Virus record (IMG/VR): IMGVR_UViG_3300026980_000004
Strand: one strand, 5' to 3'
Origin: a virus
Lineage: Duplodnaviria; Heunggongvirae; Uroviricota; Caudoviricetes
Length of the DNA stretch: 64,000 bases
A program made the position numbers and the translations under genes. The notes beneath the pieces were generated by a model that was not told the DNA's origin, ran no database searches, and worked only from the letters and a program-made list of their open reading frames with translations. Shown here one piece after another: positions 20,191-53,400 of this stretch (within the stretch, counting starts at the first letter, position 1; the number at the start of each line of letters is the position of its first letter).

Positions 20191-20278
20191 ATATCAATAA
20201 AATAAAGGTACTTTCCGAGTGGATTAATCCCTCAGATTAAGGCTGCACAACCAGCCTAATTGCACTTTCTGCAATCCT
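20191..20278. ncRNA. 88-nt conserved element, copy 2, abutting and overlapping the stop codon of the Cas12/TnpB-like gene
   Basis: Identical to copy 1 over 88 nt. Located exactly where a TnpB right-end/omega-RNA scaffold or a Cas12f tracrRNA would lie. Confidence 0.45.
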
Positions 20279-27000: not shown

Positions 27001-28080
27001 TTATTTAAAATTTAATATTTCATAAGCAGATTCTATATTACCAAAAATATTGGTTAATATTTCATCAGCTTCAAATAATTCAACAGGATCATTAAAATGA
27101 TTAAACATATAGGTATTTTGTTCATCATAATCTTCTTCATCATCAAAATATTCGCTTTCAACATCTTCAAACATTTTTGGTGGTTTAATCACTGTATATG
27201 AAAATCCCTCTTCATCAGTTTCGTAATAAAAATCAAATATGATATATACAAATCCGTTATAAGCGTATTTGTTAAATTCTTTTGTATTATCATTCCCATA
27301 AGTAAAACACCATAAAGAATTACATCCAATTTTTTTTAAATCTTCTGGATTACTAATTTTTATTATTAAATTATGTTTTTTATTAAATACAATACTAGAA
27401 TTAATTGAATTATTTTTTACTAGTTTAATGATATCTTCTTTTTTTATTTTATCTGAACTTAATAAATTTTCTTTATTATCAAAAAAATCTACGATATTAG
27501 ATATAGTATTATTTGATTTAAATGCCTTGTTTAAAATTTTATTTCTTATTTTATCATCCCTATTATTTAATTTATCAATCTGTTCATCCAATTCAGTTAT
27601 TAACACGACAAATAAATTAAATTCTGTGAAATTTCTCTCTAATCTTATATCATTTCTAATATTTCTTATTGCAGTTGATGGTATTTTTTTAAAAAAATTT
27701 ATTATATATTTTCGATAAAAAAGATATTGAATTAATTGATTAATTTCTTTTTGGGGTGTTTTATATATATTTAAATTTTTTAATGGTAATATATTTTTAT
27801 TATAATTTTTTAATTCATTATAAATATCATTCAAACTAAAATTACCATATAATGATTTATATACCGAATAATTCTCTTTTATATAAAAATATATATCCGA
27901 GATTATTTTTGTATAATGATCACCATTTGTTATTTTAAGAATATATTCTTTATCTTCTTTTGATAATAAACCTTTATTAAAGTATTCTTTATCTGCTAAT
28001 TGTAGGTTTTCAATTATAAGTTCTTCTTTTATAATTTTTATTAGATTATTCATATCTATCCAAATACATTTGTAAATCAT
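27001..28080 (-). CDS. hypothetical protein, IIKEE-leader family (MNNLIKIIKEE; true start probably at the internal Met)
   Basis: 359-aa ORF. Confidence 0.4.
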   Translation of the reverse strand: MIYKCIWIDMNNLIKIIKEELIIENLQLADKEYFNKGLLSKEDKEYILKITNGDHYTKIISDIYFYIKENYSVYKSLYGNFSLNDIYNELKNYNKNILPLKNLNIYKTPQKEINQLIQYLFYRKYIINFFKKIPSTAIRNIRNDIRLERNFTEFNLFVVLITELDEQIDKLNNRDDKIRNKILNKAFKSNNTISNIVDFFDNKENLLSSDKIKKEDIIKLVKNNSINSSIVFNKKHNLIIKISNPEDLKKIGCNSLWCFTYGNDNTKEFNKYAYNGFVYIIFDFYYETDEEGFSYTVIKPPKMFEDVESEYFDDEEDYDEQNTYMFNHFNDPVELFEADEILTNIFGNIESAYEILNFK

Positions 28081-28636
28081 TATAGCATTTTTGAGTTATT
28101 CCATTTTTAAAACCATCCTCAATAAAATACTCATTAACTTCATCAAAATCATCACCTTTAAATTGTAACAAGAGTGGTTTAATTTCATTACTTGATAATT
28201 CAATAAATTTAATTACAGGTATTAATTTACAACCAATTTTCTTTGCAGCCATTGCTCTATGCCTACCTTCTTGGGATGGTTTATTATTAACAAAATATGG
28301 TACAGGAAATTTATCACCATCCAACATATTCTGTGCATATTTATTAATTAATTCTTCATGTGTTGGTTGTAATGCATCATCATATGAAATTCCAAAACCT
28401 CTCGCAACATTATAAATGTACTGATCTGGTTTCATGTATTCTAATTTTGCTGTTCTTCTTTTATTAATAATTGAATATAAAGGCATATAAAATTCAACAT
28501 ATTGATCATATATTGAATCGATATCGAAATATTTATTGCATTCAATATCCTCTAATTCTTCCTTTATTATTTTTAATATATTCATTTTATTTAACATAAT
28601 CCTTGATTTCATCTTTAAAATCATTGAATTTATCAT
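28046..28636 (-). CDS. ParB-like nuclease domain protein, IIKEE-leader family (true start likely MNILKIIKEE at about 28546)
   Basis: SQEGRHRAMAAKKIG ParB/Srx motif. Confidence 0.5.
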   Translation of the reverse strand: MINSMILKMKSRIMLNKMNILKIIKEELEDIECNKYFDIDSIYDQYVEFYMPLYSIINKRRTAKLEYMKPDQYIYNVARGFGISYDDALQPTHEELINKYAQNMLDGDKFPVPYFVNNKPSQEGRHRAMAAKKIGCKLIPVIKFIELSSNEIKPLLLQFKGDDFDEVNEYFIEDGFKNGITQKCYNDLQMYLDRYE

Positions 28637-29456
28637 TAATATTCATCGCAATAGAATCCAAATCATCAAATAATCGATATAATAAATCGACAATATTTTC
28701 ACATTTTATTAATAAACTGTCCAGTATCTCAAAGTTCATATCATCTTCAAATTCTTCAGATAATCTATTACCAGTACGGATGTCTTCCTTTATTAATTCA
28801 ATGATTTCAATTATATTTTTTATTGATGATAAATCTAACCTTCTCTCTTCTGGTAAATTTACAACTAAATTGGATAAACCAACTAATTTACTCAATATAT
28901 TATCATTTATTAAAGATATTAATTCATTGATATTATCAATATTATTTAAATTGACAGAATCATATTTAAATTGTTCTTTAATTATTGATTTATATTCTTC
29001 TTTAATTAAATCATTATAATTATTAATCACCTTTAAAATTTTTATTTGTTTTGAATCAAGTGCAATGACCTCACCGATGTTACCCATTATATCTAATAAA
29101 ACAACACCATCATATCCATTCCTTTTTAACTTATCAAAATCTTCTTTATCAATAAAGTTAGCACTTTTAATAAATCTATCTTTTCTATCTAAATAATGAA
29201 AATCATTTTCAAAATAATACGGATTTTTAATATTAACATTACAAACATAAACATTTCCACCCTCAGCATAATCATATGCCTCACGTTTATTTGGTGTAAA
29301 ATAAAAACCATAATTATCATCACGTAAGAACCTTTTTTTTGATTGATCAAAACTTTTAAAAATCTTAGGTTCAGTCCTTTTTCCTTTTTCATCCCATTTG
29401 GGTGGTTGACCATGATAAAGAATTTTAGGTATCGCTGGATATTTTTTATTATTCAT
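28587..29456 (-). CDS. hypothetical protein
   Basis: 289-aa ORF overlapping its downstream neighbour. Confidence 0.4.
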   Translation of the reverse strand: MNNKKYPAIPKILYHGQPPKWDEKGKRTEPKIFKSFDQSKKRFLRDDNYGFYFTPNKREAYDYAEGGNVYVCNVNIKNPYYFENDFHYLDRKDRFIKSANFIDKEDFDKLKRNGYDGVVLLDIMGNIGEVIALDSKQIKILKVINNYNDLIKEEYKSIIKEQFKYDSVNLNNIDNINELISLINDNILSKLVGLSNLVVNLPEERRLDLSSIKNIIEIIELIKEDIRTGNRLSEEFEDDMNFEILDSLLIKCENIVDLLYRLFDDLDSIAMNINDKFNDFKDEIKDYVK

Positions 29457-29521
29457 AATAATAATATTAAAATTAAGTATACATATAAATACAAAAGTAT
29501 TTATATTTAAATAAAATACAT

Positions 29522-30097
29522 ATGGATAATCTTAAAAAAATAATCAGAGAAATTATAAAAGAAGGTGATAGAGAACATACTTATTACATGTTTTTCCAGA
29601 ATATTAAACAAATTAAAAGACAATGCGAAGAAATTCTAGAGATGGATAGACACAATGTTGATAATGTTTTAAAATCTGGACATGATTGGGCATCTGATCA
29701 TATATCAACTTCAAAAGATGATGTCGAAGAAGTATATAATTTTTTAAAAGAAAAATGTAAAAAGGATACGGTTGTTACTGATATTGATGATATAATTGAA
29801 TCTACTGAAAATAGGTTAACAGATGATGAAATTATTAAATTAGGTCATGAAATATTCGAAAAATATATGTACTCAGATAAAGATATTAAAAGAAAAGTGA
29901 AAGATGATTGGTCTAACGATGGTTTAAGCAGATTTGGTCAATTCACTAATAATAAATTATCTAATTTATTATCAGTAAAAGATAATAGAACAAGACAAAT
30001 GAAAATTCATGAAATTGTGGATCAATTAGAAATTTTAAAAGATTACATTAAAGATAATTCTATCGATATCTTAATAAAATCATTACTAATAAGATAA
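29522..30097 (+). CDS. hypothetical protein, IIKEE-like leader (MDNLKKIIREIIKEG)
   Basis: ORF preceded by AAGTATTTATATTT. Confidence 0.45.
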   Translation: MDNLKKIIREIIKEGDREHTYYMFFQNIKQIKRQCEEILEMDRHNVDNVLKSGHDWASDHISTSKDDVEEVYNFLKEKCKKDTVVTDIDDIIESTENRLTDDEIIKLGHEIFEKYMYSDKDIKRKVKDDWSNDGLSRFGQFTNNKLSNLLSVKDNRTRQMKIHEIVDQLEILKDYIKDNSIDILIKSLLIR

Positions 30098-30231
30098 TAT
30101 TATTTCACGATTTAAAAATCCAATAATAAACTCATATTCACCATTTAATGTTTTATCATGGGTTATTTTAATGAATGGAAATAAATATATTTGACCAAAT
30201 ATTTTAGATATTGTAATTTTCATATATATTA

Positions 30232-30681
30232 TTATATTAATTGTTCTCTATAACTTAATAACTTGTATAGGTTTTGTAATTGATGGACATGACTTATACA
30301 AGTTATATATTTATTATTAATTGAAACATCATAACTAGTATCATCTTCAGATATAACACCAATATTTTCAGCATCAATATCTTGATCTTCTTTTTCTAAT
30401 AAAAACCAATCATGAAGTATCCATTCTTTGTGAATATAAACGATATCTGTAATTGATTTTTTTACACTCTCAATACATTCAAATTTAAAATAATTTAACC
30501 AATAATCATTTATTATTATTGGTCTAACATCATTTAAAACAATAGACTCAGAATCGTTAATTCTTGGATAGAACATTATCCACTCATCATTTTCATCTAT
30601 GAATGATATTTCTTTAACTTGTACAATTGAACCACAGGGTAATTGGACATAATTATTAATCATTAAATCTCTTGCATCCAT
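30232..30681 (-). CDS. hypothetical protein
   Basis: 149-aa ORF. Confidence 0.4.
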   Translation of the reverse strand: MDARDLMINNYVQLPCGSIVQVKEISFIDENDEWIMFYPRINDSESIVLNDVRPIIINDYWLNYFKFECIESVKKSITDIVYIHKEWILHDWFLLEKEDQDIDAENIGVISEDDTSYDVSINNKYITCISHVHQLQNLYKLLSYREQLI

Positions 30682-30684
30682 TAT

Positions 30685-30931
30685 TTTAATAATTTTTTAA
30701 TTGTATTAATGATATTTCTATTATATTTTTTGGTTTCGGCATCACTTGCAAATAAATTATTTAAATCAATAAAATGATTCATCATTTCTTCCGCAACCTC
30801 TCTTCTTATTCTAATTGTTACAAATTTATTCATATTATTTTATTTAATTTTAACAAAACATGTTATATGTGATATTGGTGAATAACATATATATAAACTT
30901 TTTTCACAAATCTTTATAATTTTTTGATTTT
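30685..30931 (-). pseudogene. degraded N-terminal remnant of the integron-type tyrosine recombinase gene (copy of the 5' end of gene 49995-50798)
   Basis: rc 30931-30896 encodes MKNQKIIKICEK, matching MKNQKIIKICEQ of the intact gene. YSP, ISHI and HFID islands are conserved and interrupted by frameshifts and stops. Confidence 0.55.
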
Positions 30932-30990
30932 TCATGATGTAACTTCTTGAAAATTAATATGATATGAAAACTTACATATATATAATAGTT
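30932..30990 (+). other. attI-like site remnant ending in GTT (second copy)
   Basis: 30894-30990 is about 85% identical to 50754-50853. Both end in ATATATAATAGTT, and foreign-composition DNA starts immediately after. Confidence 0.5.
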
Positions 30991-31162
30991 GGCAAATATA
31001 AAATCATTCATCATATCTTATTGAATGAACAGCCTGTTCTACTGTATAAGCCATTTGCCAAAGTTTTCTAATATATGCTTTTGTCGGGCATTTAATGTTT
31101 ACTTCTTCTAAGTTGTTTTTGATGTGCTGATAGTACGTTTCAAAAGTCATGATTTTACGAAT

Positions 31163-31252
31163 TTGCCAACAATAAATAAAATGAATAGTACAGCTTGGTG
31201 TTCTGCATCTAACCGATGTTTTTGTGTGCGCTACTGCATTTTATTAGAGCCG
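31163..31252 (+). repeat. attC-like imperfect palindrome (AACAATAAATAAAATGAATAGTACAGC ... GCTACTGCATTTTATTAGAGCCG|TT)
   Basis: Left and right halves are reverse-complementary with bulges and end in CCGTT. Confidence 0.4.
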
Positions 31253-31318
31253 TTATGTGCATTAAAACGGCAAGGGCTAAAGCCCGCACAACACGGGGTA
31301 TAACCAATAAAAACACTA

Positions 31319-31618
31319 CTATTGTGCTTCTACAATTTCAAAGTCATCGCTACTGCACCAAAAATCGTCATCAGTAACTTTAACTTTGTCGTTCAATTTC
31401 GTGGCTGAATCCTGCCAATCTTCCCAATCCGTGTTGTTTAATAGCCAGTCGATACCTTCATAGTCATCTTCCATTACCCAGTCAACTTCTTCTTTGTAGT
31501 CTTGGCTTCCAATTTCTACACCGTCTTTTTTGGCATAGTAATTTGCTCGATTTTCAGCCACTAACATTAGTGGAATTTGAAATTGTCCGTTAGGTGTGTT
31601 GCATTTAATTACTTTCAT
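31319..31618 (-). CDS. hypothetical acidic protein (cassette-like gene)
   Basis: 99-aa ORF with higher GC than the phage backbone. Confidence 0.4.
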   Translation of the reverse strand: MKVIKCNTPNGQFQIPLMLVAENRANYYAKKDGVEIGSQDYKEEVDWVMEDDYEGIDWLLNNTDWEDWQDSATKLNDKVKVTDDDFWCSSDDFEIVEAQ

Positions 31619-31677
31619 CTTGTTATTTATTTTGGTTGTTATAAATCCGTGTTTTTACAGGTCATAGCCCAGCACTG

Positions 31678-31899
31678 TTAGCCACCATTTAATTCCGTAT
31701 CCGTTTCGGGGCGTGTGGTTGCTATTTGTTCTGCCATTCTTCGGCATGTGGCTTTGTCTCTTTCGGAAAGTTTATCCCAAAAGTCCATACTTCCTCCCTT
31801 TTGTGAAGTGTATCTATCAGCGTAAAGCCACATTGCACATCTCGCAGGTCTATGTGGGTCTAAGTTTCTTTGCTCTCTTTCAATTTCGTGTTGTGTCAT
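31678..31899 (-). CDS. hypothetical protein (cassette-like gene, GC-rich)
   Basis: 73-aa ORF. Confidence 0.3.
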   Translation of the reverse strand: MTQHEIEREQRNLDPHRPARCAMWLYADRYTSQKGGSMDFWDKLSERDKATCRRMAEQIATTRPETDTELNGG

Positions 31900-32033
31900 A
31901 TTAAAAACGTTTTATAATAACGTATAAAATTAATTGCTACGTTGTTGAGTTATTTTATATTTCTACTTCTAATCTACTGTTGTGGTTTGTGAAAAGTCGT
32001 GCATCTAATACATAACTAATCTTATACAAACCA

Positions 32034-32294
32034 TTAGCGGTAATTTTTCTTTGATTTACTATTCGGACATTTTTCATTGTGGCATAACATTTCACCGAAT
32101 AATCCTAAAAATCCATTTTTCGATACAGTTGAACCACAGTTCGTACAAAAATGTCCTACACCTTCTCGTATAACTCTACTTAGTGGTGGTTCAGGTGGTT
32201 TTGGAATATAACCACCGATAAAATCAGATATATTCAATTCTGATGAATGTTGTTCAAATGCCTGTATATTTTTCAATCTTTTGATCATAATCAA
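32034..32294 (-). CDS. zinc-ribbon protein (CTNCG...CHNEKC)
   Basis: 86-aa ORF with C4 pattern. Confidence 0.35.
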   Translation of the reverse strand: MIMIKRLKNIQAFEQHSSELNISDFIGGYIPKPPEPPLSRVIREGVGHFCTNCGSTVSKNGFLGLFGEMLCHNEKCPNSKSKKNYR

Positions 32295-32354
32295 AGTTTA
32301 TTTCTATATATAAATATTAGAAAATTAAAATTATATTAAACAAACTGTAGGTGA

Positions 32355-32564
32355 TTACTTGATTTTTCGAGCCAAGTAAAATTCTACAATCTCTTTGTCA
32401 GTAAGATCATCTACCGCTACTTGTTTACGCCATTGTATAAAATCAACTAACAGTTCTCTTCGCCCTGCAACACTAAGTAAAAACAGTAACTCATGTGCCA
32501 AATAAACAGCTTTATCTTCACCTATTCTATTTTTTCTTAGTAATTTAATAATTTTATCTTCCAT
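32355..32564 (-). CDS. hypothetical small protein
   Basis: 69-aa ORF. Confidence 0.3.
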   Translation of the reverse strand: MEDKIIKLLRKNRIGEDKAVYLAHELLFLLSVAGRRELLVDFIQWRKQVAVDDLTDKEIVEFYLARKIK

Positions 32565-32648
32565 ATCGTTACTTTATTTATCTGTTTTCGTAATATAGAA
32601 TACTATGTTTCTATTCACATATGCAAATCTTATATAATTTACAATATT

Positions 32649-32981
32649 CTATTTCACATTGTTTATATTAACTAATTCACGTAGTACTTTAATTTTTTGT
32701 GCCAATATCCATTTGCCGCCTTGATTTTCTGGTCTATGGAAATATTGGTAATCATCAACCTCAACTTCAATCCATATTCTATTATTTGATGATAAATGTG
32801 GTGCAAACGGTTTAACCAAACAATGCCAACCCTTTCTGATTGCATATCCATTTGTTGGGAATTCTTCAGCTTCAATCCATTTGTTCAATTCGAATCTGTA
32901 TTTTTTATTTATAAACAATGGTGCGATTGTCCCGTCTTTAAGTTTTCTAACTAATTTATATGCTATCATAATTTTAATCAC
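32649..32981 (-). CDS. hypothetical protein
   Basis: 110-aa ORF. Confidence 0.35.
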   Translation of the reverse strand: MIKIMIAYKLVRKLKDGTIAPLFINKKYRFELNKWIEAEEFPTNGYAIRKGWHCLVKPFAPHLSSNNRIWIEVEVDDYQYFHRPENQGGKWILAQKIKVLRELVNINNVK

Positions 32982-33465
32982 ACATATGTTCTAAATTGTG
33001 TTCAATTAATTTCCAGAGTAGTTTTTTTGCTCTCTGATGTTTTTGTTCTGCTTTTAGAGCTAGTTCTGAATATTGTTTTTCAGCCTCTTCTTGTTGTTCA
33101 GGTGTATGTGCAAATTTCCACTTAATACCCTTATATGTATAAGAACCATTATTATTATTCTCCCATTCCCAATCAAAATCACCCCACATTTTTTTCATTT
33201 GGTCAAAATGTTCCATTCTATACTCTTCATCATAGACTTTTTTCATTAATTCGAGTATTGTTCTGAGTCTTCTTGCATTTTTTTTTCCACTTACACTATA
33301 TGCTTTATCAGAATCCAAATAATTTGCAGTTCTTTGTAGTTGATAATGAAATAAATTCACTGCATGGATATAATCAAAATCATATCCTTTCCATATTATA
33401 GGTAAAAAGGAAATTACTCTTTTAATTCTTCTAAAGAACCATGATATATTATTAAATATTTCCAT
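32974..33465 (-). CDS. hypothetical protein
   Basis: 163-aa ORF. Confidence 0.35.
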   Translation of the reverse strand: MEIFNNISWFFRRIKRVISFLPIIWKGYDFDYIHAVNLFHYQLQRTANYLDSDKAYSVSGKKNARRLRTILELMKKVYDEEYRMEHFDQMKKMWGDFDWEWENNNNGSYTYKGIKWKFAHTPEQQEEAEKQYSELALKAEQKHQRAKKLLWKLIEHNLEHMCD

Positions 33466-33482
33466 TATCTAGTATGTTTATA

Positions 33483-34358
33483 TTAGTTAGAACCAAACAT
33501 TTTTTCATATAACATTTTAACTGCATGTTTTTCCTCGGCTGTATAACCACTAGGTTTTTCAAAACCAATTGATAATAAATTACATCCTAATATTGATAAA
33601 TTATTATTATCATATTTAGATTTATTGTATAACCATGCCATTAAAGCAGATGATGTATATGAATCATTAACTTGAACTTCCAAATAAAGTTTCTTACCCT
33701 TTTCAAAGTAAATATTTGATAAATGTTCTTTACCCTCTTTAGATGAACTATTATAAACATCAATATCTTTAATTAGGTTATCTAAAGATATTTCTTCTAA
33801 TATTTGTTTATTATCAGCGATTGCCTTTTTATTATATTCAATCAAACGATCACCAAAATATTTTTTGGTATTAATATAATCAATAAAAGTAAATGATTGA
33901 TCATTCTCATTGTGATCTTCTAAATTTTTTACAACAAATGTATCACCAATAAAATCATTAATATCAATTTTTGTATCACATTTATCGGCAGTACCATGAA
34001 ATTTAGTTAAATAAATATAATCATAATTACCTATAAATTGTTTATACACATTAGCACCACCAATAATCCAAATTATTTTATCTGGATAATTTTCCTCCAA
34101 TTCTTCTAACATATATTCAATATCGTTGTATACGAGTACACCACGTCCTTCCATTAATTTATTAGATAAAACAACATTTATTCTATTGGGTAGTGGTTTA
34201 CTACCGATTGATTCATATGTTTTAGATCCCATAACAACAATGTTATCGGATGTTAGTTCCTTGAATCTTTTTAAATCTTTTTTTGATTTGAAAACCAAAT
34301 CATTATTATAACCAATACAACCATTTGCATCGGTTGCTACTATCATATTAATCAACAT
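33483..34358 (-). CDS. frd: dihydrofolate reductase with about 120-aa C-terminal extension
   Basis: N-terminus MIVATDANGCIGYNNDLVFKSKKDLKRFKELTSDNIVVMGSKTYESIG is a classic DHFR fold signature. At 291 aa it is longer than the 193-aa T4 frd. Confidence 0.75.
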   Translation of the reverse strand: MLINMIVATDANGCIGYNNDLVFKSKKDLKRFKELTSDNIVVMGSKTYESIGSKPLPNRINVVLSNKLMEGRGVLVYNDIEYMLEELEENYPDKIIWIIGGANVYKQFIGNYDYIYLTKFHGTADKCDTKIDINDFIGDTFVVKNLEDHNENDQSFTFIDYINTKKYFGDRLIEYNKKAIADNKQILEEISLDNLIKDIDVYNSSSKEGKEHLSNIYFEKGKKLYLEVQVNDSYTSSALMAWLYNKSKYDNNNLSILGCNLLSIGFEKPSGYTAEEKHAVKMLYEKMFGSN

Positions 34359-34629
34359 TTTTTGACTTTTTTAAATATTTTATAATTAATTTAGAATCCT
34401 TCTCGTTAATGAAAAATCCATCCCATGATCCATATTTTGTTTTATAACCAAATATATAATATATTGCCAATTTAATTCTTTTAAAGAAAGATAATGAAGT
34501 ATTTAAATGTGGTTCAAACCATACACCATCATCTTTAGAATAGTAAAATGAATATTGATGTTCTAATGAACCACATTTACATATGAAAATATCTCTATCT
34601 AAATCATTTATTTTATTATTTTTTTTCAT
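34348..34629 (-). CDS. hypothetical protein
   Basis: 93-aa ORF. Confidence 0.35.
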   Translation of the reverse strand: MKKNNKINDLDRDIFICKCGSLEHQYSFYYSKDDGVWFEPHLNTSLSFFKRIKLAIYYIFGYKTKYGSWDGFFINEKDSKLIIKYLKKSKNVD

Positions 34630-35186
34630 TTAAATCACATTTAATTTTATCACCGTCTTTTGTCCATAACAATACTGAAGAATCCACAGTCATATTACTA
34701 CGTTCGGGATCTCTTTTCCAAAATTCATGTCTTATTACTTGAATTAAATCATATGCGACTCTACAACTATCATCAACATTTTCATTAAAAATACCGTAAC
34801 TACCATGATCATGCATATTTTCTTGTAGAAGAATATTTCTACCTTGATTTAATAATTTTTCACCCTCATCCCTTAATTTATGATATGCGTCATAATCAAT
34901 AGATAATTTAATATTTTCAATATCGTGCCAAGTTTTAATTTCTTCACCATTTCCCCAAGAAGCTTTTGTTTTAATATAATCATCACCAATTTCGATAATA
35001 ACACCTCTTTCGGTTTTTATCACCAACTTCAAGATCTTTTTGTGGTCTAAGTTTATCCGATAAAACACTTTGGAATGTTGGGTGATCTTTTATAACCCAC
35101 ATTTGTCCAATACCAACTCTAGAATAAAAATCAAGTGCTGTTTGGATTATTTTTAATTGTTCTTCAGTTATTTCTAGTTTTGGCAT
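34616..35186 (-). pseudogene. two overlapping ORFs (34983-35186 and 34616-35068) that probably form one gene interrupted by a frameshift at an A-run
   Basis: Frames switch at CCACAAAAAG; each ORF alone lacks a normal start or end context. Confidence 0.3.
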
Positions 35187-35406
35187 CTTTTCTGTAATTT
35201 TCGATTCCTACAATAAGTGTATATAATGGTGTTAATGAAATTGCGAAACATTCTTTATTAATCCAACATTCATATTGACCATCACCACCCACAATTAATT
35301 CTGTCCTATTCTTTCGTTGAAATTCAATAACATCTGCTAAGTTAAAGTTTTTTTCAACATATTCCAATTCTTTTTCCAAATAATTCATAAAAATGAAAAA
35401 ACCCAT
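35164..35406 (-). CDS. hypothetical protein
   Basis: 80-aa ORF. Confidence 0.3.
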   Translation of the reverse strand: MGFFIFMNYLEKELEYVEKNFNLADVIEFQRKNRTELIVGGDGQYECWINKECFAISLTPLYTLIVGIENYRKDAKTRNN

Positions 35407-35438
35407 ACCTTATGATATGGGTCTTTAATTTAGTGTTA

Positions 35439-36242
35439 TTATTTTAAACCTTTAATTACCGATGCAGAATTTGACCCAAACACATTATTAGAACCCCAAG
35501 GAGATATACCCCTTTCAGCCCAAATCCTTTCAGTTTGTGCTCTAAATAGTTCCAAATATTGTGGTTTTGATTGAAGGGCTTTTGTTTTATCGTTTAACAC
35601 TTCTGCATCATAATTACCCTGTGCTTCTGCAACTTTTGCCTTTGCAAGTGCAATTTGTTCAGCCTCTTTCTTTTCCGCTAATTGATTTCTACCGATCTGA
35701 ACTGCAGTTTCTTCTGCCAATTGTGAAATACCCTCTGGGATGTCGATATCTGTAAAGTTAGCTCTTTTATATTGAACATAGAATGATGCAAATTCATCTC
35801 TAAGAATTGCTTCCAATTTCTTTTCGGCATCAACCCTAGCATTTTTATTTAGATCAACCGCACCATATTGTGGGACAACTTCTTTTGCTGCACTACTAAT
35901 AGATTTCTCAATTTTCACTTGAAGATCTTTAACTTCTTTATGAAATAGATTAACCATTTCTGGCTGAAGATTCCAATCCACAGCAACCTGAATTTTAGTT
36001 AACATATCATTTTTATCATTAAATTCTAGTTCCATTACGGTTGTATTCTCACGAACATCATATTCAACCATATCATCCCATAACCAACCAAAACCAGTAT
36101 GCATACCCTCTGGATACACTTGTGACATATCTGTTGCACCACCCCATTCGACTCTGACACCCTTATGTCCAGAATCTACTGATGTACAACTTGTTGTAAA
36201 TACAACTACAATAATTGATAATGTAATAATTAATTTTCTCAT
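35439..36242 (-). CDS. SPFH/band-7 (prohibitin/HflK-like) lipoprotein
   Basis: Signal peptide plus lipobox (VFTTSC). Band-7-like core. Ala/Glu-rich coiled-coil tail. Confidence 0.5.
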   Translation of the reverse strand: MRKLIITLSIIVVVFTTSCTSVDSGHKGVRVEWGGATDMSQVYPEGMHTGFGWLWDDMVEYDVRENTTVMELEFNDKNDMLTKIQVAVDWNLQPEMVNLFHKEVKDLQVKIEKSISSAAKEVVPQYGAVDLNKNARVDAEKKLEAILRDEFASFYVQYKRANFTDIDIPEGISQLAEETAVQIGRNQLAEKKEAEQIALAKAKVAEAQGNYDAEVLNDKTKALQSKPQYLELFRAQTERIWAERGISPWGSNNVFGSNSASVIKGLK

Positions 36243-36598
36243 AATTTTATTTGTTTGTTTTTTAATTTATTTATGTAATATTTAAATAATAAATATATTG
36301 ATGTTATAATTAAGATAATTGGCCATAAAAAACCAATAATTAAAGAAAACCCTAAACCAATTAGGATATACATTAAAATATATTCAACTATTATATCATT
36401 ATCTGATTTTACATTTCTATGTCTACTTGAACCAGTTATAAGAAATTCAATATGGTAAATTACATTATAAAATGGTGATTTACTATTATAATTATCGTAA
36501 TCCACTAATAATTTTCTAAATTTTGGTACGAATGGTATTGATATATATAGCAAATAATAGACTATTGCAATATATTTACTTATTTCTATATAAATCAT
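36239..36598 (-). CDS. membrane protein, hypothetical
   Basis: 119-aa multi-TM ORF coupled to the SPFH gene. Confidence 0.4.
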   Translation of the reverse strand: MIYIEISKYIAIVYYLLYISIPFVPKFRKLLVDYDNYNSKSPFYNVIYHIEFLITGSSRHRNVKSDNDIIVEYILMYILIGLGFSLIIGFLWPIILIITSIYLLFKYYINKLKNKQIKL

Positions 36599-36738
36599 TA
36601 TTTTTTATTATTTCTATTTTCGGGATTTCTTAACCATTGGTAACTCATCCAGAATGCCCAGATTACAAATGCGATTAGTAGTAATGAAATTGTTCCTTTT
36701 AGCATAGTTTTAATTGTTTAAAGTGTAAATTTATAGAT

Positions 36739-37311
36739 TTATTTTATAATTTCCAATTCTTGTAGAATCTTTTTTACATTACTTTTCAATGTATCTAAAT
36801 CAGAGTCATTTACTATTGTATAATCAAAACCAGTATAATCATCTAATTCAATTTCTGATTGATGGTAATCAATATTTTTAATAGATGGTCTATTAATTCT
36901 GATTAATTGAGAATTATAAGAATTCAATGCCTCTGCTTCATTTTTAAATCTTAAGTCAGTAATGATCCAATAATAATTTTCTTTATATTTGGAGAGTGTT
37001 GAATTTATCCAAACATTTTGATGTACATTATTTCTCATAGCATCAGTACCAATTTTCTGCAATAATAATCTGGGTGTCATTTTTTGCATAATACAATCAT
37101 CATCTAAAAAATCCCATTGACTAGGTAATGGTGTATTTTTAAATTCTTCATTTTCCAATTCATCTCTTGTACATGAGATTAAATTACAAACAAAATCCTT
37201 TAAAATATCTGCGAATTTAACAATTTTAAATTTATTATTTGTTAACTCTTGAATAATATTTGCAACCGTATCTTTACCGTGTTGTTTTTTTGCGGATAAT
37301 GCAATAATCAT
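36739..37311 (-). CDS. deoxynucleoside monophosphate kinase (T4 gene 1-like)
   Basis: N-terminal P-loop MIIALSAKKQHGKDTVANII is similar to T4 gp1 MKLIFLSGVKRSGKDTTADFI. Confidence 0.6.
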   Translation of the reverse strand: MIIALSAKKQHGKDTVANIIQELTNNKFKIVKFADILKDFVCNLISCTRDELENEEFKNTPLPSQWDFLDDDCIMQKMTPRLLLQKIGTDAMRNNVHQNVWINSTLSKYKENYYWIITDLRFKNEAEALNSYNSQLIRINRPSIKNIDYHQSEIELDDYTGFDYTIVNDSDLDTLKSNVKKILQELEIIK

Positions 37312-37496
37312 TTATTTTTTATTTTATTATAACAAGTATTAAAATTAATTTCTTCACCAGCATCAAACCCAAATGATGTATTTTTCCACCAAATATATAT
37401 ATTATCGTTTAAGGAATAAAATATTCCAGCCGAATTATTTTTCATTTTATTGGTTTTTAGACAATTTTCTGCTTGATTATTTAAATATATATCCAT
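37308..37496 (-). CDS. hypothetical small protein
   Basis: 62-aa ORF. Confidence 0.3.
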   Translation of the reverse strand: MDIYLNNQAENCLKTNKMKNNSAGIFYSLNDNIYIWWKNTSFGFDAGEEINFNTCYNKIKNK

Positions 37497-37499
37497 AAA

Positions 37500-37745
37500 T
37501 TATATATTTAATAGTGCTTTATAATAATCAGATGCCAATAAATTATTAGCCCCACTTTTAGATTTAATAATTTTTTTTAATCTATTTTCAGCACCCTCAA
37601 GCAGTTCCCATAATGTACCATTATCATATTCCTTTGAAATTATAGAATCAAACTTATTTCTATATTCTGGATATTCATCTACTAATTTATTTTTAAATAT
37701 GTTAAATCTTCTCTTAATTAATTTTTCTGCCGTAGTTTTATCCAT
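37500..37745 (-). CDS. hypothetical small protein
   Basis: 81-aa ORF. Confidence 0.3.
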   Translation of the reverse strand: MDKTTAEKLIKRRFNIFKNKLVDEYPEYRNKFDSIISKEYDNGTLWELLEGAENRLKKIIKSKSGANNLLASDYYKALLNI

Positions 37746-37920
37746 TTTAATTATATTTAGTTAATAAATTTTTAAATTCTTCTGATTTAATTAATGTTTT
37801 ATAAGATGTGTACATTTTTTTTATCACACTACCACCAACTGGATTTTTTCTAAAACCATCTCTATATATTGCATCGTTTTCAGATATATCAAATAATTTG
37901 AATTTAATATTTGCAAATTC

Positions 37921-38292
37921 TTAAAATTTATCAATAATATTTTTAATATATGATAATTTAACATGAGTATTGTCCCATATAATATTATAACCGTTTTCCA
38001 AAAACATTGTTGCGTTTGAAAACTCAATGTCAGTCACTAATTTTTCAAGATCGTATTCTAATAATGGTTTATTTTTTATCATATAACGAATATCATCCCT
38101 ATTTATTCTAAGATAATCAGGGTTATCAATTATAAATTCTTTTGCAAATGTTGATTTACCAGAGGCTGGAATCCCTATAAGAATTAATATTTCTTTAGAT
38201 TTCTCTTCCATATTCTTTTTTATAAAGATCAAAATTTCTAAATTGTGAATGAATGTATTTCCATGTTTCATTAAAATCTTCAACAGTTCCAT
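37921..38292 (-). CDS. P-loop kinase (polynucleotide-kinase-like N-terminal domain), short
   Basis: ILILIGIPASGKSTFAKEF Walker A followed by RINRDDIR, resembling the Pnk kinase domain. At 123 aa it may be truncated. Confidence 0.45.
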   Translation of the reverse strand: MELLKILMKHGNTFIHNLEILIFIKKNMEEKSKEILILIGIPASGKSTFAKEFIIDNPDYLRINRDDIRYMIKNKPLLEYDLEKLVTDIEFSNATMFLENGYNIIWDNTHVKLSYIKNIIDKF

Positions 38293-38396
38293 GTGTTGAT
38301 GATTTGTATGTTGATCTAATTCCTTTTGGTTTTAGATCATATTTCCTAATAATTTTTTTATTTGGTATTAAAAGATTTTTTATTTTGTACAGCATT

Positions 38397-39590
38397 TTAG
38401 TATTTTTTAAAAGTGGGTTCATAATATTTTTTTATTGTAAATAATGATTCTTCTTTATCCGTTAGGAGTTTTGATCCTATTCTTCTTATTGGTTGTGATA
38501 TAATCCCTAAAATTCTTAAATCATCAATAATCTTATCAATCTCATTATTGGTTAGGTTATCATTATTAACAATTGATTTTATTTCGTTTTGGGTAATCGA
38601 TGAATTTTTATTTTTAATTGTATATAATTTTTCAATTATATCTATATATTGTTTATATTCTTTAAATTCCTTACTATTTCTTATATAATTTATTTTATTT
38701 TTTTCAATTTGCTCATTATGTTTAGTAATCTCATCATTTTTTAATTTTATCAAACCAATTTTGTTACCAATAAAAATTATTCCGAACTCTGTAATAATCG
38801 TAAATATAATAAACATAATGATAATAATATTATTCTTATCATTAAAATTCGTTAAATTCTCATTTCTTTTTTCCCTAATGGTATTAATTACAGATCGTAA
38901 CTCGTTTTCTAACTCATTTACTTTAGATTTTTTATATGTATTAAATTTTAAATCTAATTCAATTAAATTATTATTAACCTGATCAATTTTATTATTAATA
39001 TCTTTATAATATTCTCTTAAGCTAATGCTTCTTATTTGTGAATCATCGTAGTTATCTCTATCGGATTTATATTGATTTAATTGACTCATATATATGTTAT
39101 ATGTACCACTAAAATCATTAACATCAACTATTTTTAAATTTTTAATTTGATTGATTTTATCATTATAATAGTTTGTTGTATCCAATATTGATTGATTAAT
39201 GGTATTTTCAATGATAATTGTAGTATCTTCTTTTTTATCTAGAAATTTATATATACCATATGTTGAAATTGATATTGATAATACTACTGTTATAGATGCA
39301 ATTATTATATTTTCGATTGATTTATCAAATGAAAATAAACTAATTAATTTATTTACTTTGATAATTTCATTTGTAATTATTAACAATAATAAAAATATAC
39401 CAAATATAACAATCAAATATGGTTCAATCCCTAAATTTGATAATTCTTTAATAATAGATAATGAAAATAAAATTGAAAAAAAGGATAATATTTTAATAAA
39501 AAAATTATTCAATTTATCAATTATTATATTTTTCTTTGGTTCCCATTGTGATTCGGTAACCAATAATTTTTCAATGTCTTCAATCTTCAT
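38397..39590 (-). CDS. membrane protein with coiled-coil region, hypothetical
   Basis: 397-aa ORF with several TM segments. Confidence 0.4.
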   Translation of the reverse strand: MKIEDIEKLLVTESQWEPKKNIIIDKLNNFFIKILSFFSILFSLSIIKELSNLGIEPYLIVIFGIFLLLLIITNEIIKVNKLISLFSFDKSIENIIIASITVVLSISISTYGIYKFLDKKEDTTIIIENTINQSILDTTNYYNDKINQIKNLKIVDVNDFSGTYNIYMSQLNQYKSDRDNYDDSQIRSISLREYYKDINNKIDQVNNNLIELDLKFNTYKKSKVNELENELRSVINTIREKRNENLTNFNDKNNIIIIMFIIFTIITEFGIIFIGNKIGLIKLKNDEITKHNEQIEKNKINYIRNSKEFKEYKQYIDIIEKLYTIKNKNSSITQNEIKSIVNNDNLTNNEIDKIIDDLRILGIISQPIRRIGSKLLTDKEESLFTIKKYYEPTFKKY

Positions 39591-39874
39591 AAGATTATTT
39601 TTAGAAACTAACCAATGACAAATTTATAATAAAAATATATATGTGTCAACCTTTTATTATTATTTCTGAACCATTGCTCAATATAATTTTGCACGATTGA
39701 TTTTTTTCTAATCTAATAACATGTTTATATATGTAATTTGTATCAGCACTGAACGTTACTACGTTTGCTAGTTGTTGTTTTTCTTCTTCTAATTCGTAAC
39801 CTTTTGCTCTAGAATCACCCATATTAATAATATTAAATTTTAAAAAAAGGGTGGAAAAATCCACCCCACCATTT

Positions 39875-40252
39875 TTATTTCAACATTGCTTCAAGTTCTT
39901 CTACACTCTTACTTGCAAGCTCTTGATCCTTTTTCAACTTAATTAGATTAAGAATATGTTGATTTGTCTCCTTATTTTGTGCTTTGGTTCTTTCATCCTC
40001 CAATTCTTTTTTCTTTGTAAGATATACATCTTTAAGAATTTCAAATTGAAGTTCCTTTTCTTTGTCTACAACGAAATTATCATCCAAGAAAGATAATTCA
40101 TCATCATTCTGTGATTTCAACTCTTTCTTTAGGTTCTTAATTGAATTGCTTAGTTTGGTTAAACTAAGGTCCCATAATTGTTCAACCGATAGAACACCTT
40201 GTGTTGTTTTAAATCTTAACTGATTTTTTGTTGCTAATTTGTAAATATCCAT
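39875..40252 (-). CDS. coiled-coil protein, hypothetical
   Basis: 125-aa ORF. Confidence 0.35.
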   Translation of the reverse strand: MDIYKLATKNQLRFKTTQGVLSVEQLWDLSLTKLSNSIKNLKKELKSQNDDELSFLDDNFVVDKEKELQFEILKDVYLTKKKELEDERTKAQNKETNQHILNLIKLKKDQELASKSVEELEAMLK

Positions 40253-40256
40253 TATT

Positions 40257-42449
40257 TTAAAATTTAATTTTTAATGTTCTTTTAAATGATCCACTGACTC
40301 GTACAATTAATTCATCTTTAACAGTTGAATTAAAACCAATTCCTGATAGTTGCTTATTTGAGGGTTCTATCATTGATTGATTACCCAATACTTCCAATAC
40401 TTTTCTATGTTGGAGTAATTCACTATTCAAATATTCATTATGAAAACTTCTTAGAGGTGCATCGGTTTTACAGTTACTCAACATAAAGAAATAATGCTTA
40501 TTCCCAATATTGTTATCACCCCAATAATTTGGTGATTGACAAACAAGATTTACTTTATGAAATTTATTCGTATCTAAATTCCAGATAGTATTTGTTTTTT
40601 CTTGACTAACATCTAGCTTATTTTTAATCTCAAATTTACCATTTTTTAAAGTAACTTCAGCTACAACTACATTACCACTAAATGAATTTGGATATTCATA
40701 TGTGTATGAATTACCATCAAATTCGATTTCAGCTGTAAAACCCTTTGATCCTCTATTAGAAAACATGTTTACCCAGAAAGTATAAACACCGTCTTTCATT
40801 TTACTTTTATCAAGATATGAAATATTTTCAACGATATTTTTATTTTTGTAGGTATTTGGTGTTGTAATATCAACATCTAGTTGCCCACCATTACGAGTTC
40901 TACTATCACCACGATCTTTTCTATATGGTGTGTCATAACCAATTTTAGTTCCGTTTGGTTCTTTACACCAAGCATCCAAATCGGTATTATCACTAGGATC
41001 ATTTTCACCCCACATAATACTGAATCTTAATGCACAATCAACTAATCCACCCTTTTCTTTTACAGCATCTTTAATATATGATTTACCAGCTAAATTACCG
41101 TTATATGTCCAGCTAAATGGATTACCCCATTTAAATATATTTTTAGATTCTGGACTATTACCTGTAATTAAACTAACAAAATTAGAATTAAATCTATTTT
41201 CAAGATATACTTCAACAGAGGTTGATGTAGGAAGAATGTCATTCATGAATTTATCAATTGTAACTTCTTCAACGTTGTCCAATTCACTTCTTTTATGTCT
41301 TGAACTTTTTGTAGCTTTAACATTATCAAATAAGCTCGCAGACTTTACCTTTGTATTATCAACATTTGTATGAAGAATTTCATCAATATTAATATCATCA
41401 ATTGTTGCAAATCTTCTGTTAAATGAATCCTCATATCCATTTTCGATTACAAAAGCTTCAGCTTCTTTAATTTGTTTTTCGGTGATTGGTGCCTTTGCCT
41501 TCATATAATTAACTGGGTCTGCACGTTTATTCCAATCAAGACATGCTTTATTCAGTTCTTTACCTTCGGCTAATTCAACACAAATAGTACCGATTAATTC
41601 ATTTCTAAATTTAGCATAAGGTAACTCATATGATTTAACCCATGCGTAGTTATCTCTTTTTGTAGAGCCAATTTGATCATATTCCTTTTTAAACTTAATA
41701 AAATCAATTAGTTTGGGTAAATATGAATCACCATTTAACAGTGAACCTTGTGTGATTAAATCTTTAACTAATTGTAATGTATCTAATGGAATTTCACCCA
41801 AACCTCTTTTAAATACATCCTTAGCATCACGATATTCACCCCTGATTTTTTCAATTGAATCATTCCCAAATTTAACAAACTTTCTATCCAAGAAAACATG
41901 GTAGTGGTTAAATTCATAGACCCGATCAGTTGTAACAACACCAAATTTATTTACTTCATCTTGAGTATATTTTTTTAGTGTTTTTACAATACCCAACTGA
42001 TACTTCAATAAATTTTTATTGGTTTTTTCGTATGGTAATGAATTTAATTCATCATACGTTTCAAAAAATACATTTGAAACTTTTGATTTTTTTAATTTAT
42101 TTGATAATTTATTTGCTGGATTATAATAAATTGAGTCTTGATTTATATCTAAATCAAACATCGTTAAAATATCCAGATTATTATCAATGGCAACAACATT
42201 TCCATATCTTCTAATGAAGTTTTTATCATTATTACAGTTATGATAAGAACTATTTGGATCTCTAAATACGGGATCATCACCCTTCTTAAACGATTTTAAA
42301 TACAACTCCCACAAATCATCACCAGATACTGAAGATTTAAATAATTTAAAATTTGATTGCAAATAATCAAATCTTTTTGAGATTAGATTATTGAATTCAG
42401 TAAACGATAAATCTAAATCGTTTATTTTTTTTGAAAGTGTTGTTTCCAT
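40257..42449 (-). CDS. large hypothetical protein (730 aa)
   Basis: Long uninterrupted ORF; no motif I can assign confidently. Confidence 0.45.
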   Translation of the reverse strand: METTLSKKINDLDLSFTEFNNLISKRFDYLQSNFKLFKSSVSGDDLWELYLKSFKKGDDPVFRDPNSSYHNCNNDKNFIRRYGNVVAIDNNLDILTMFDLDINQDSIYYNPANKLSNKLKKSKVSNVFFETYDELNSLPYEKTNKNLLKYQLGIVKTLKKYTQDEVNKFGVVTTDRVYEFNHYHVFLDRKFVKFGNDSIEKIRGEYRDAKDVFKRGLGEIPLDTLQLVKDLITQGSLLNGDSYLPKLIDFIKFKKEYDQIGSTKRDNYAWVKSYELPYAKFRNELIGTICVELAEGKELNKACLDWNKRADPVNYMKAKAPITEKQIKEAEAFVIENGYEDSFNRRFATIDDINIDEILHTNVDNTKVKSASLFDNVKATKSSRHKRSELDNVEEVTIDKFMNDILPTSTSVEVYLENRFNSNFVSLITGNSPESKNIFKWGNPFSWTYNGNLAGKSYIKDAVKEKGGLVDCALRFSIMWGENDPSDNTDLDAWCKEPNGTKIGYDTPYRKDRGDSRTRNGGQLDVDITTPNTYKNKNIVENISYLDKSKMKDGVYTFWVNMFSNRGSKGFTAEIEFDGNSYTYEYPNSFSGNVVVAEVTLKNGKFEIKNKLDVSQEKTNTIWNLDTNKFHKVNLVCQSPNYWGDNNIGNKHYFFMLSNCKTDAPLRSFHNEYLNSELLQHRKVLEVLGNQSMIEPSNKQLSGIGFNSTVKDELIVRVSGSFKRTLKIKF

Positions 42450-42799
42450 AATAATAGATGTTTGTTTATTAAAATTTCTCTTTTTTCCGAAAGATGTCCC
42501 AAAGTTAATATTATTTTTCTAATCTCCAAAATTTTCTGTTCGATTTCTTTTGATTCATTAAAATTAAGATAATTTCTTTCGGTTAAATATGAAATATAAT
42601 ACAGAATTTTTTTTAAACCAATATCGGCATCATAATGCTTATTGGAAATATATAGTAAATAGATATTATGTATTGAATTATGAATCACATCGATATCTGG
42701 TGATGCACTATCTAGTTTATTATTGTTATAATTAAATTTAGAAATTATAATCGTAATTAATAATAGTGTATATATTATATTAATGAATAAAATATCCAT
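42422..42799 (-). CDS. hypothetical protein with N-terminal TM segment
   Basis: 125-aa ORF. Confidence 0.35.
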   Translation of the reverse strand: MDILFINIIYTLLLITIIISKFNYNNNKLDSASPDIDVIHNSIHNIYLLYISNKHYDADIGLKKILYYISYLTERNYLNFNESKEIEQKILEIRKIILTLGHLSEKREILINKHLLLWKQHFQKK

Positions 42800-42802
42800 T
42801 TC

Positions 42803-43171
42803 TTAGTCTTTGACGATTTCAATTATTTCTTTGAATGGATTATATTCAACTTGAAAACACCTCATCCAAAGCCCCTCATCCAATAGTAATTCATCATGTT
42901 CATCATGAGAGATTACAGCATCACCACCAATCACCTCAAATATTAAATTTTCCATTGTTGCAATTTCTTCATTCGTCATTGTCATGATTTTATCATCATC
43001 ACTATGCAAAATTAAATCAGTACCCTCACAAGGAATTACATCATGGCTGTGTCCTGTAACTTCACCAAGTCCAACAACAATTTTATTAATTTTTTTTGAA
43101 TGTAAATTTTTATTAATATTATTAAGTTTTAATAATATCATATCACCATGTCTTAGTTTTTTTGTATACAT
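42803..43171 (-). CDS. hypothetical protein
   Basis: 122-aa ORF. Confidence 0.35.
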   Translation of the reverse strand: MYTKKLRHGDMILLKLNNINKNLHSKKINKIVVGLGEVTGHSHDVIPCEGTDLILHSDDDKIMTMTNEEIATMENLIFEVIGGDAVISHDEHDELLLDEGLWMRCFQVEYNPFKEIIEIVKD

Positions 43172-43176
43172 AATTT

Positions 43177-43839
43177 TTATGCTTCAGAATATAAATTTAA
43201 ATAATCTTCTTTTGTAAATGGCTCACCATTTGGAAATCTCATTGTCCATGCAATTGCCGATATTGCATCGCTATTACATCTACTATCAGAACTATCAACA
43301 TATAAATAATAAATTCTATCTGTTGAAGTATCTTTACATTTAACATAACAAATGTCTTCTGGGGTATTTAACTTATTTTTATCAATCAAATATAATTCAT
43401 AAATATCTTCAAACTCATGAATCTCTTCAATTAATTCTTCTTTCTTAAAAACCTCAGTAACTTTATGTGATTTTTTACCTGATATTTTATATCTTGGTTG
43501 TTTTTTGATAATAACTTTACGATCGATTAATTTAGGCTCTATTACTTTTTGAATTTCTTCGGGTCCTATTAATGATAGTATTTTATATTTCAGTTCTTGA
43601 TTTGTTAATTTAAATGCATCAACTGCATTCCAAGGTCTTACTCGATTATCATCCCAAATCTCTTTAGCCTTCTTAATAATTTCATCGTATTCGGAATTTT
43701 CAATATGCAAATATCGATTTTTTATATGATCCCATGTATTATCTTTATTAATTTTTAAAATTCTAATGAGATCAACCAAAGAATCTAATTTGATTTCCTC
43801 ATAAAAATATTTAAAATTTTTATAATCAAGGTTTAACAT
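43177..43839 (-). CDS. hypothetical protein
   Basis: 220-aa ORF. Confidence 0.4.
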   Translation of the reverse strand: MLNLDYKNFKYFYEEIKLDSLVDLIRILKINKDNTWDHIKNRYLHIENSEYDEIIKKAKEIWDDNRVRPWNAVDAFKLTNQELKYKILSLIGPEEIQKVIEPKLIDRKVIIKKQPRYKISGKKSHKVTEVFKKEELIEEIHEFEDIYELYLIDKNKLNTPEDICYVKCKDTSTDRIYYLYVDSSDSRCNSDAISAIAWTMRFPNGEPFTKEDYLNLYSEA

Positions 43840-43840
43840 T

Positions 43841-44083: not shown

Positions 44084-44087
44084 ATTA

Positions 44088-53396: not shown

Positions 53397-53400
53397 AATA

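Follow-up and report, generated by a model that had tools for sequence, protein, structure and literature searches.

The DNA analysed here (the window) is a stretch of 64,000 nucleotides (nt) from IMG/VR virus record IMGVR_UViG_3300026980_000004. It is AT-rich, with ~25% GC, and is part of a T4-like jumbo phage; a T4-type major capsid protein is encoded at 5295-6947 (Pfam Gp23, E 1e-72). At 30.9 kb the window carries the 5' end of a tyrosine recombinase gene and its attachment site, designated attI', followed by an island of GC-richer cassettes with attC sites. An intact platform, consisting of a resident recombinase gene, a resident attI and the main cassette array, lies 19.9 kb away. The same sequence is found on ENA ERZ508509 NODE_55 (265,825 nt), on a JGI 3300027026 contig (265,679 nt) and on a Logan contig, each with 100% identity to the window over 20232-44358 or 39995-52877. 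Because contigs of 265,825 and 265,679 nt match the window, the replicon is a jumbo phage of ~265 kb, and because three independent assemblies agree at 100% on the 30.9-kb region, this region is not an assembly artefact. The features of the two platforms are listed below, with the caret marking the crossover, ORF standing for open reading frame, aa for amino acids, GC3 for GC content at third codon positions, and R1 for the attC covariance model described further on.

30852-30991, minus strand: paralogous platform copy (recombinase 5' end plus attI), matching 50694-50854
30840-30935, minus strand: recombinase stub, an ORF of 31 codons and pseudogene remnant of residues 1 to ~35 (translation, tblastn)
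30936-30990, minus strand: attI', the 54-nt region from the stub ATG to the crossover, core ATATATAATAG^TT (G = 30988, TT = 30989-30990), identified by conserved columns
30989-31252, plus strand: cassette c1 with a 48-aa ORF at 31004-31150 (minus), identified by start/R'' pairing; GC3 0.29
31164-31258, plus strand: attC1, R'' TGCCAAC ... R' G^TTATGT, G = 31252 (R1 25.0 bits, E 4.5e-4)
31253-31677, plus strand: cassette c2a with a 99-aa ORF at 31319-31618 (minus) and attC arms 31286-31320 and 31640-31683 around the ORF, identified by homology and fold; GC3 0.36
31678-32033, plus strand: cassette c2b with a 73-aa ORF at 31678-31899 (minus), whose stop codon overlaps the G^TTA boundary; GC 0.44, ends in attC2
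31912-32039, plus strand: attC2, a decayed terminal site, R'' ending in AAT, R' A^TTAGCG (R1 49.7 bits, E 1.6e-10)
32034-32294, minus strand: cassette c3 remnant, an 86-aa zinc-ribbon-like ORF, identified by homology to locus L011
32355-32981, minus strand: two ORFs (69 aa and 110 aa) of intermediate composition; GC 0.31, GC3 0.20-0.25
49995-50798, minus strand: resident intact tyrosine recombinase, 267 aa (Pfam Phage_integrase and SAM_4)
50799-50853, minus strand: resident attI (G = 50851) with the main cassette array behind it, identified by its conserved core and by variable DNA beginning behind it

The initial annotation, made from the sequence alone, had described 30894-30990 as about 85% identical to 50754-50853 up to a GTT. 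Pairwise alignment places this repeat far beyond chance at the DNA level, with 105 of 120 nt identical by BLASTN between 30875-30991 and 50735-50854 (88%, E 2e-38). A collinear block of 24 nt (30852-30875 against 50694-50717) continues the copy beyond an 18-nt deletion (repeat family D18), and the repeat stops exactly at GTTG (G = 30988 / 50851). The similarity is not confined to AT-rich DNA, since tblastn of the 267-aa recombinase recovers residues 1-35 at 30853-30936 with 60% identity (E 4e-6). Beyond residue 35 nothing further was found in 28000-31000, where the next best match has E 0.25. Specifically, the stub reads MKNQKIIKICEKSLYICYSPISHITCFVKIK and then a stop codon, against MKNQKIIKICEQKFIYLNYSPRTKENYISHIKHFID in the intact gene, with in-frame deletions of 3 nt and 18 nt. 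The fragments MKNQKIIKICEK, YSP and ISHI, previously read as a recombinase N-terminus broken by frameshifts, are indeed recombinase residues, but they lie in this single 31-codon ORF and are separated by no frameshift. A further fragment, HFID, was rejected as an integrase remnant; by tblastn it is a chance match in an unrelated 50-aa ORF.

An alignment of 19 related platforms has 31 attI columns with conservation of 85% or more, of which attI' matches 29 and the resident attI 30. More than 30 related loci keep the AAC^TATTATATATA core; at the crossover, right behind AAC/GTT, the sequence turns into variable cassette DNA. As had been proposed, the phage genes between the two window copies are bracketed by attI sites, which are direct repeats flanking 19.9 kb.

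At the resident platform the core ATATATAATAG^TT lies 54 nt 5' of the recombinase start codon, and GC-richer cassette DNA begins behind it. As in integrons, attI adjoins the recombinase gene and cassettes start at G^TT, in more than 30 loci, and both window copies end at GTT. The recombinase retains the catalytic motifs GLRVSE, HTLRH, GHS and IYTHV, aligned with those of XerA and VchIntIA. It scores below the cutoffs for XerA (177 bits vs 220) and for the integron-integrase family TIGR02249 (157.6 bits vs 265, with the match in two stretches). Residues 20-172 and 210-258 can be aligned to VchIntIA (PDB 2a3v); between them, 37 residues (173-209) stand opposite 85 residues of VchIntIA (175-259), ~48 fewer at the site of the IntI-specific domain, indicating that this domain is absent from the phage recombinase. 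The enzyme is thus not an IntI-clade integrase with the additional domain near patch III. Its closest relatives in sequence and structure are XerA 4a8e (E 2e-32) and the integrase of Cellulophaga phage Ingeline (38% identity). Judged from sequence, the recombinase is Xer-like, and the earlier label "intI" describes an integron-like role by functional analogy, not family membership, as the enzyme is not a canonical IntI. The family comprises more than 5,000 proteins, of which the best 120 listed are almost all 267 aa long and are annotated XerD where named; some relatives have an integrase that is 85-95% identical. Because the IntI-specific domain is absent, IntegronFinder-type searches would class these phage arrays as integrase-less.

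The attC model was derived from the main array. Fifteen inter-ORF repeats (51.1-63.9 kb) align with the architecture of attC sites, namely R'' ending in AAC, L'', L', and GTT beginning R'; as in attC sites, their length varies and structure is more conserved than sequence. In these 15 sites, 18 of 25 stem pairs vary on both sides, 82.6% of alignment cells are paired (25-35% when partners are slid), and none of 500 shuffles matches the observed covariation score. Of features comparable to the extrahelical bases that set strand choice in integron attC sites, only two mismatch positions that are conserved and a bulge of 1 nt in some sites can be made out. In 14 of 17 main-array cassettes, the cassette start pairs perfectly with its own R'' over exactly 10 nt, a signature of integron-type cassette insertion, while R' and R'' within the same site, used as a control, are complementary over just 3-7 nt. 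The covariance model R1 was trained on main-array attC sites only and run over the whole window with filters off. At E < 0.2 its non-training matches are in the main array (52749-52881, 52433-52562) and in the island (31912-32039, 31164-31258), and nowhere else in the window; in 1.42 Mb of other AT-rich phage DNA it matches 12 times, in clusters at 4 loci.

The first five main-array ORFs and the island ORFs are on the minus strand and are read towards the integrase; locus L001 has 31 consecutive genes in this orientation. Cassette ORFs co-oriented with a cassette promoter (Pc) at attI/intI, with attC at the ORF 3' end, are not the arrangement found here, and promoter-like hexamers are not enriched over shuffles. 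In addition, the minus-strand ORFs of phage-type main-array cassettes begin inside their own attC. Two near-identical repeats, 57983-58115 / 63868-64000 (133 nt, 99%) and 53390-53583 / 55177-55370 (194 nt, 95%), duplicate a cassette start and a long attC within the main array, and in contig L127 a 166-aa cassette appears again behind a restriction-modification cassette.

Three or four genuine cassettes lie behind attI'. Insertion at the G^TT, which the initial annotation had suggested, is indicated by the island-specific R1 matches, by the pairing of the c1 start with R'', and by two cassettes (c2a and c3) that share their boundaries with homologues elsewhere. Specifically, the search of the island with R1 yielded attC1 and attC2, and the start of c1, GTTGGCAAAT (30988-30997), is perfectly complementary to its own R'', ATTTGCCAAC (31164-31173), as expected of an integron cassette, whose start pairs with its own attC rather than with the site before it. 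This inverted repeat ahead of an attC had been noticed before; it comprises 10 perfect bases, not 12. The L stem of attC1 forms but is weak and AT-rich; that of attC2 keeps both A.C mismatch positions that are specific to the family. The arms of c2a fold as a canonical R/L hairpin of -11.4 kcal/mol, the value of a main-array site, around the 99-aa ORF, indicating that this ORF occupies the attC loop, with the L'' arm on one side and the L' arm on the other (31286-31683).

The cassettes are of foreign origin. At the nucleotide level c2a is 88% identical to a segment of Roseivirga sp. contig JBFVJR010000064 (L156). There the gene has an attC hit on each side (46 and 28 bits); the attC that precedes it is unrelated, and homology sets in precisely at the GTT of that site. 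The 99-aa ORF also has 93% protein and 91% DNA identity to a gene in small phage-like contigs. The c2b boundary, G^TTAGCC (31677/31678), was inferred from the c2a attC and the end of the L156 homology. The c3 ORF is 75% identical at the aa level to a cassette in a related phage array (L011 9154-9384) and has the same left boundary, which reads ...TAA^C in that array and ...TAA^T here; no attC of its own is recognisable. GC3 is 0.29-0.36 from c1 to c2b, 0.18-0.25 in 32034-33465 and 0.15 in the backbone, and all island ORFs are oriented like the surrounding phage genes. Pfam and PHROG searches returned no function for the island proteins. In 32355-32981 there is no R1 attC hit, and no homologue is found in the syntenic relative L162 (see below); the 69-aa and 110-aa ORFs there, the latter matching phrog_12224, may be old cassettes or lineage-specific genes. 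The initial annotation had correctly placed foreign GC-richer DNA behind the GTT but had extended the island to 33470. It ends before 32974; the extension was rejected, since the 163-aa gene at 32974-33465 is conserved backbone, syntenic in L162.

The stub and attI' together match the resident platform best, with a score of 167 vs <=128 for 31 relatives, and the intergenic motif GTAAGTTTTCATA is private to the two window copies. The two platforms are paralogous. In L162, a relative with syntenic gene order and proteins 55-73% identical, the Band_7, DHFR and 163-aa genes are followed by two small genes and these by the 149-aa gene. The two conserved genes that flank the insert in the window (163 aa and 149 aa) are separated by 434 nt in L162, which has no attI, no stub and no attC match above 11 bits. 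The insert is absent from L162, indicating that 30834-32973 is lineage-specific and that the 30.9-kb platform copy is the derived one. Duplication or rearrangement of the platform within the phage, as first suggested, is plausible in view of the match to the resident platform and of L162; with later loss of most of the recombinase gene it is the simplest and most likely route, although this route is itself deduced. A 730-aa anchor protein gave 80 loci with synteny too poor for the ancestral order to be read. Just downstream of the stub, the 50-aa ORF at 30681-30833 (minus) has its L162 homologue (5631-5771, 44%) on the other side of the 149-aa gene; this shift of position hints at a local rearrangement at the time the stub was formed.

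We interpret the locus as a decayed paralogous platform with a second small cassette array (c1, c2a, c2b and c3; 30989 to ~32300) in a phage integron-like system, and put the probability of this reading at roughly 0.78. Several observations weigh against it. attC1 and attC2 are thermodynamically weak as single-stranded DNA (ssDNA), with z-scores of +0.3 and -0.9; both conserved triplets are lost in attC2; and the c2b start is not complementary to the attC2 R''. The 6-8 contigs that carry the region show no variation of attI' (100% identity wherever they were compared directly) and hence no direct sign that the site is active at present. The reading of the copy as derived depends on one syntenic relative (55-73% aa identity), and L162 could have lost the insert. 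Finally, recombination of cassettes at these sites by an Xer-like enzyme is itself deduced from sequence.

Whole-site ssDNA folding does not separate the island attCs from shuffles, and arm-only folding is more informative; attC2 has no canonical ssDNA fold. Its AAT and ATT stand where the family has AAC and GTT, and the c2a R' has A for G and T for C relative to its Roseivirga counterpart. These changes are all from GC to AT, the direction of the phage composition bias. c2a is nearly unameliorated, which argues for fairly recent capture, and the island array as a whole looks largely frozen on the evidence of its decayed sites and of the identity of the region in all close relatives examined. 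Close relatives that vary at attI' were not recovered by IMG/VR scans with the 149-aa and DHFR flank proteins or by a metagenome protein scan. Exact-pattern DNA scans with the lineage-specific attI sequence found no match in viral or metagenome contigs, and exact-protein look-ups returned identical copies of the island only.

Three other explanations were weighed. The two repeats might be attL and attR of a 19.9-kb integrative element (30991-50853), with the island as one element end; they are direct repeats, and the integrase gene lies just inside one end, as in many integrative elements. However, the repeat, ~140 nt long, does not extend across the crossover; all of it is on the integrase side, which is the wrong shape for an attL/attR core. 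The intervening genes are backbone that shares the 25% GC and the strand of the flanks. They include a DUF8224 protein found in 207 viral contigs, and DHFR and its neighbours are syntenic in L162, which has no repeat. An element bounded by attL and attR is recognised by a shared core and by DNA that is absent from empty sites, and this segment shows neither, so we consider the explanation very improbable. Chance similarity of AT-rich, promoter-like DNA or an assembly artefact, with the island as ordinary accessory (moron) genes, is the least credible of all. Although the region is AT-rich, with promoter-like hexamers no commoner than in shuffles, the E 2e-38 match has support at the protein level as well, 29 of 31 conserved attI columns are kept, the attC matches are specific to the island, its boundaries are common to other arrays, and the three assemblies are identical; these results refute the explanation.

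An alternative that deserves somewhat more weight, while still being unlikely, is that attI', the stub and the cassettes were imported by recombination with a co-infecting related phage whose platform occupied another position. Platform neighbourhoods do differ among relatives (the L039 platform adjoins the capsid module), truncated integrases and a second attI core are present in L033, L038 and L040-L044, and the ~12% divergence of the window copies is similar to that between lineages. Against import, GTAAGTTTTCATA is common only to the two window copies, and the stub scores clearly best against the resident platform among all platforms compared (167 vs <=128).

According to the paralogous-platform reading, the phage would own an integron-like system consisting of the 267-aa Xer-like recombinase, attI with its G^TT crossover, and an attC-bounded cassette array. 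The platform would have been duplicated or rearranged after the split from the L162 lineage, with most of the recombinase gene deleted subsequently. Foreign GC-richer cassettes would then have integrated at attI' and at the attCs behind it by the same site-specific reaction, with the resident recombinase presumably serving attI' in trans. The second array would now be eroding under the AT bias of the phage, as seen in AAC changed to AAT, GTT changed to ATT, AT-rich stems and one missing attC. If the platform is active, the attI copies, as direct repeats, could allow the enzyme to remove the intervening 19.9 kb by deletion or excision. The predicted products of attI' x attI recombination are a deletion junction, ...ACTTACATATATATAATAG^TTGTGGTGC, and a circle junction, ...ACTTATGTATATATAATAG^TTGGCAAATAT.

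Platforms with attC arrays and a conserved attI core are present in more than 30 large viral contigs. In IMG/VR, 40 loci have a recombinase with 62-81% identity, on contigs of up to 430 kb; in these loci and L001, R1 gives 211 attC hits, nearly all upstream of the integrase and on the opposite strand. The arrays are internal to phage contigs, as in L026, which has an endolysin and a nuclease beyond the array. Truncated integrase genes recur, retaining residues 1-19, 1-38 or 1-84 or having an internal deletion, and each lies next to attI and attCs. The truncated or secondary platform loci are:

L033, 10176
L038, 8753-9004
L039, 10001-10401
L040-L044, 10001-10114

L033 has a second attI core 9 kb from the integrase, with attCs alongside; together with the recurring truncated integrases, this indicates that orphan or secondary sites are recurrent in the clade. 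A full-text literature search returned no description of a jumbo-phage platform of this kind. We tentatively propose, as a broader possibility that we hold with less than even confidence, a widespread clade of T4-like jumbo phages, apparently of Bacteroidota, with a genuine and active integron that uses a minimal Xer-like recombinase without the IntI domain, a stock of small reverse cassettes (plausibly for counter-defence), exchange with host attC arrays, several attI per genome, and attI' served in trans.

The main array itself differs between assemblies. From 39995 to an attC GTT (52875-52877) the window and ERZ508509 NODE_55 match at 100%, and right behind it they continue into different cassettes (L001 7921-7922); a Logan contig also ends on this base. 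The sequence at 52877 forms a perfect cassette junction, and the divergence is either a polymorphism of cassette content at the canonical crossover or an assembly branch there. The sequence 52801-64000 is 100% identical to short contigs with bacterium-like coverage (25x vs 84x for the phage in ERZ508509), and in ERZ508520 NODE_89 the same cassettes are continuous with a Bacteroidota chromosome that carries type IX secretion system (T9SS), Por_Secre_tail and GH92 genes. The right end of the window reflects either phages with host-type cassettes, or a phage joined to a host array, or a contig that is chimeric through a shared attC. Cassette turnover may be visible in the main array, where genomes differ right after the GTT at 52877 (with a chimeric join to a host array possible), while the attI' copies are all identical. 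The ambiguity leaves the finding at 30.9 kb untouched, which lies deep in phage sequence on which three assemblies agree. The larger plus-strand cassettes of 52801-64000 include an MmeI/Eco57I-like restriction-modification enzyme (60435-63650, matching contigs L127 and L134). The longest contig carrying a flank protein is 276,998 nt, the ~265.8-kb phage plus 11 kb.

The window also codes for a tRNA nucleotidyltransferase, a Mom-like protein, homing endonucleases and a ClpB-like ATPase. A megablast search with 24 kb against isolated phages found no match, and Rfam and tRNA scans were empty. Two CRISPR-like arrays with the 36-nt repeat GTTGTGAATACCTTTCATTTGTTGGGTAGTGACAAC are present (window 17985-18135, 18182-18280, 19745-20167 and 20191-20289), one with seven repeat copies and spacers of 29-30 nt, the other with two to three copies. 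Each array is followed by a 99-nt element, the two elements being 96% identical; neither arrays nor elements have an Rfam hit. The larger array adjoins the 3' end of a 463-aa TnpB/Cas12f-like ORF at 20277-21668 (minus; Pfam Cas12f1-like_TNB), with which the arrays may form a miniature phage-encoded type V system. The phage genes between the attI copies also include an IS607-like pair at 47082-48827 (minus), in which a TnpB (392 aa, OrfB_IS605 and Cas12f1-like_TNB) accompanies a serine recombinase (188 aa, Resolvase).

In the prevailing view, integrons are devices of bacteria, and it is the IntI integrase that defines them. The phage system shares with integrons, in particular with sedentary chromosomal integrons and integrase-less attC clusters, an attI by a divergently placed tyrosine recombinase gene, the G^TT crossover, and R''-L''...L'-R' sites with AAC/GTT and covarying stems. 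It further shares with integrons a cassette start complementary to its own R'' and may also share a cassette content that varies between close genomes. It differs in that the recombinase carries the annotation XerD and has no IntI-specific domain, the phage-type ORFs point towards the integrase, one ORF lies inside an attC loop, the replicon is a jumbo phage, and this replicon has two attI sites. Two features, the integrase domain and the orientation of the cassettes, exclude the system from the integrons in the strict sense.

The nearest proteins in sequence and structure are Xer-type recombinases (XerA/XerC/XerD) and integrases of Bacteroidota phages (Ingeline; Polaribacter phage Freya). These enzymes act on dif or attP/attB duplex sites, and we know of no Xer-type or such phage integrase beside arrays of folded attC-type sites. 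Recombination of folded attC sites by an enzyme without the IntI domain is a direct target for experiment.

Chromosomal integrons with an inactivated intI, for example in Xanthomonas, likewise have a decayed integrase gene, a retained attI and array, and gradual fixation. In contrast to these, the phage has an intact paralogue 19.9 kb away that could serve the orphan site. The orphan site is a natural experiment on the cis requirements of a platform, on the fixation and erosion of an array in an AT-rich virus, and on gene uptake by phages, one island cassette being 88-91% identical at the DNA level to genes of Bacteroidota mobile elements.

Clusters of attC sites without an integrase are known as CALINs (Cury et al. 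2016, PMC4889954). With three attC sites within 31164-32039 beside the 31-codon recombinase stub, the island is a CALIN-like cluster beside an integrase pseudogene. Integron parts have been reported sporadically, in 21 phages, temperate and virulent, mostly as CALINs or pieces of bacterial integrons, and phage attCs were recombined by IntI1 (Qi et al. 2023, PMC9892861). Compared with those components, the platform described here is native to phages and conserved among large viral contigs, of which more than 30 carry it; its own recombinase is a shorter, Xer-like, non-IntI enzyme, and in this genome the platform is duplicated, such that one enzyme may serve two docking sites. By analogy, the 30.9-kb locus appears to work like an orphan attI with a CALIN in a phage-borne integron-like system.

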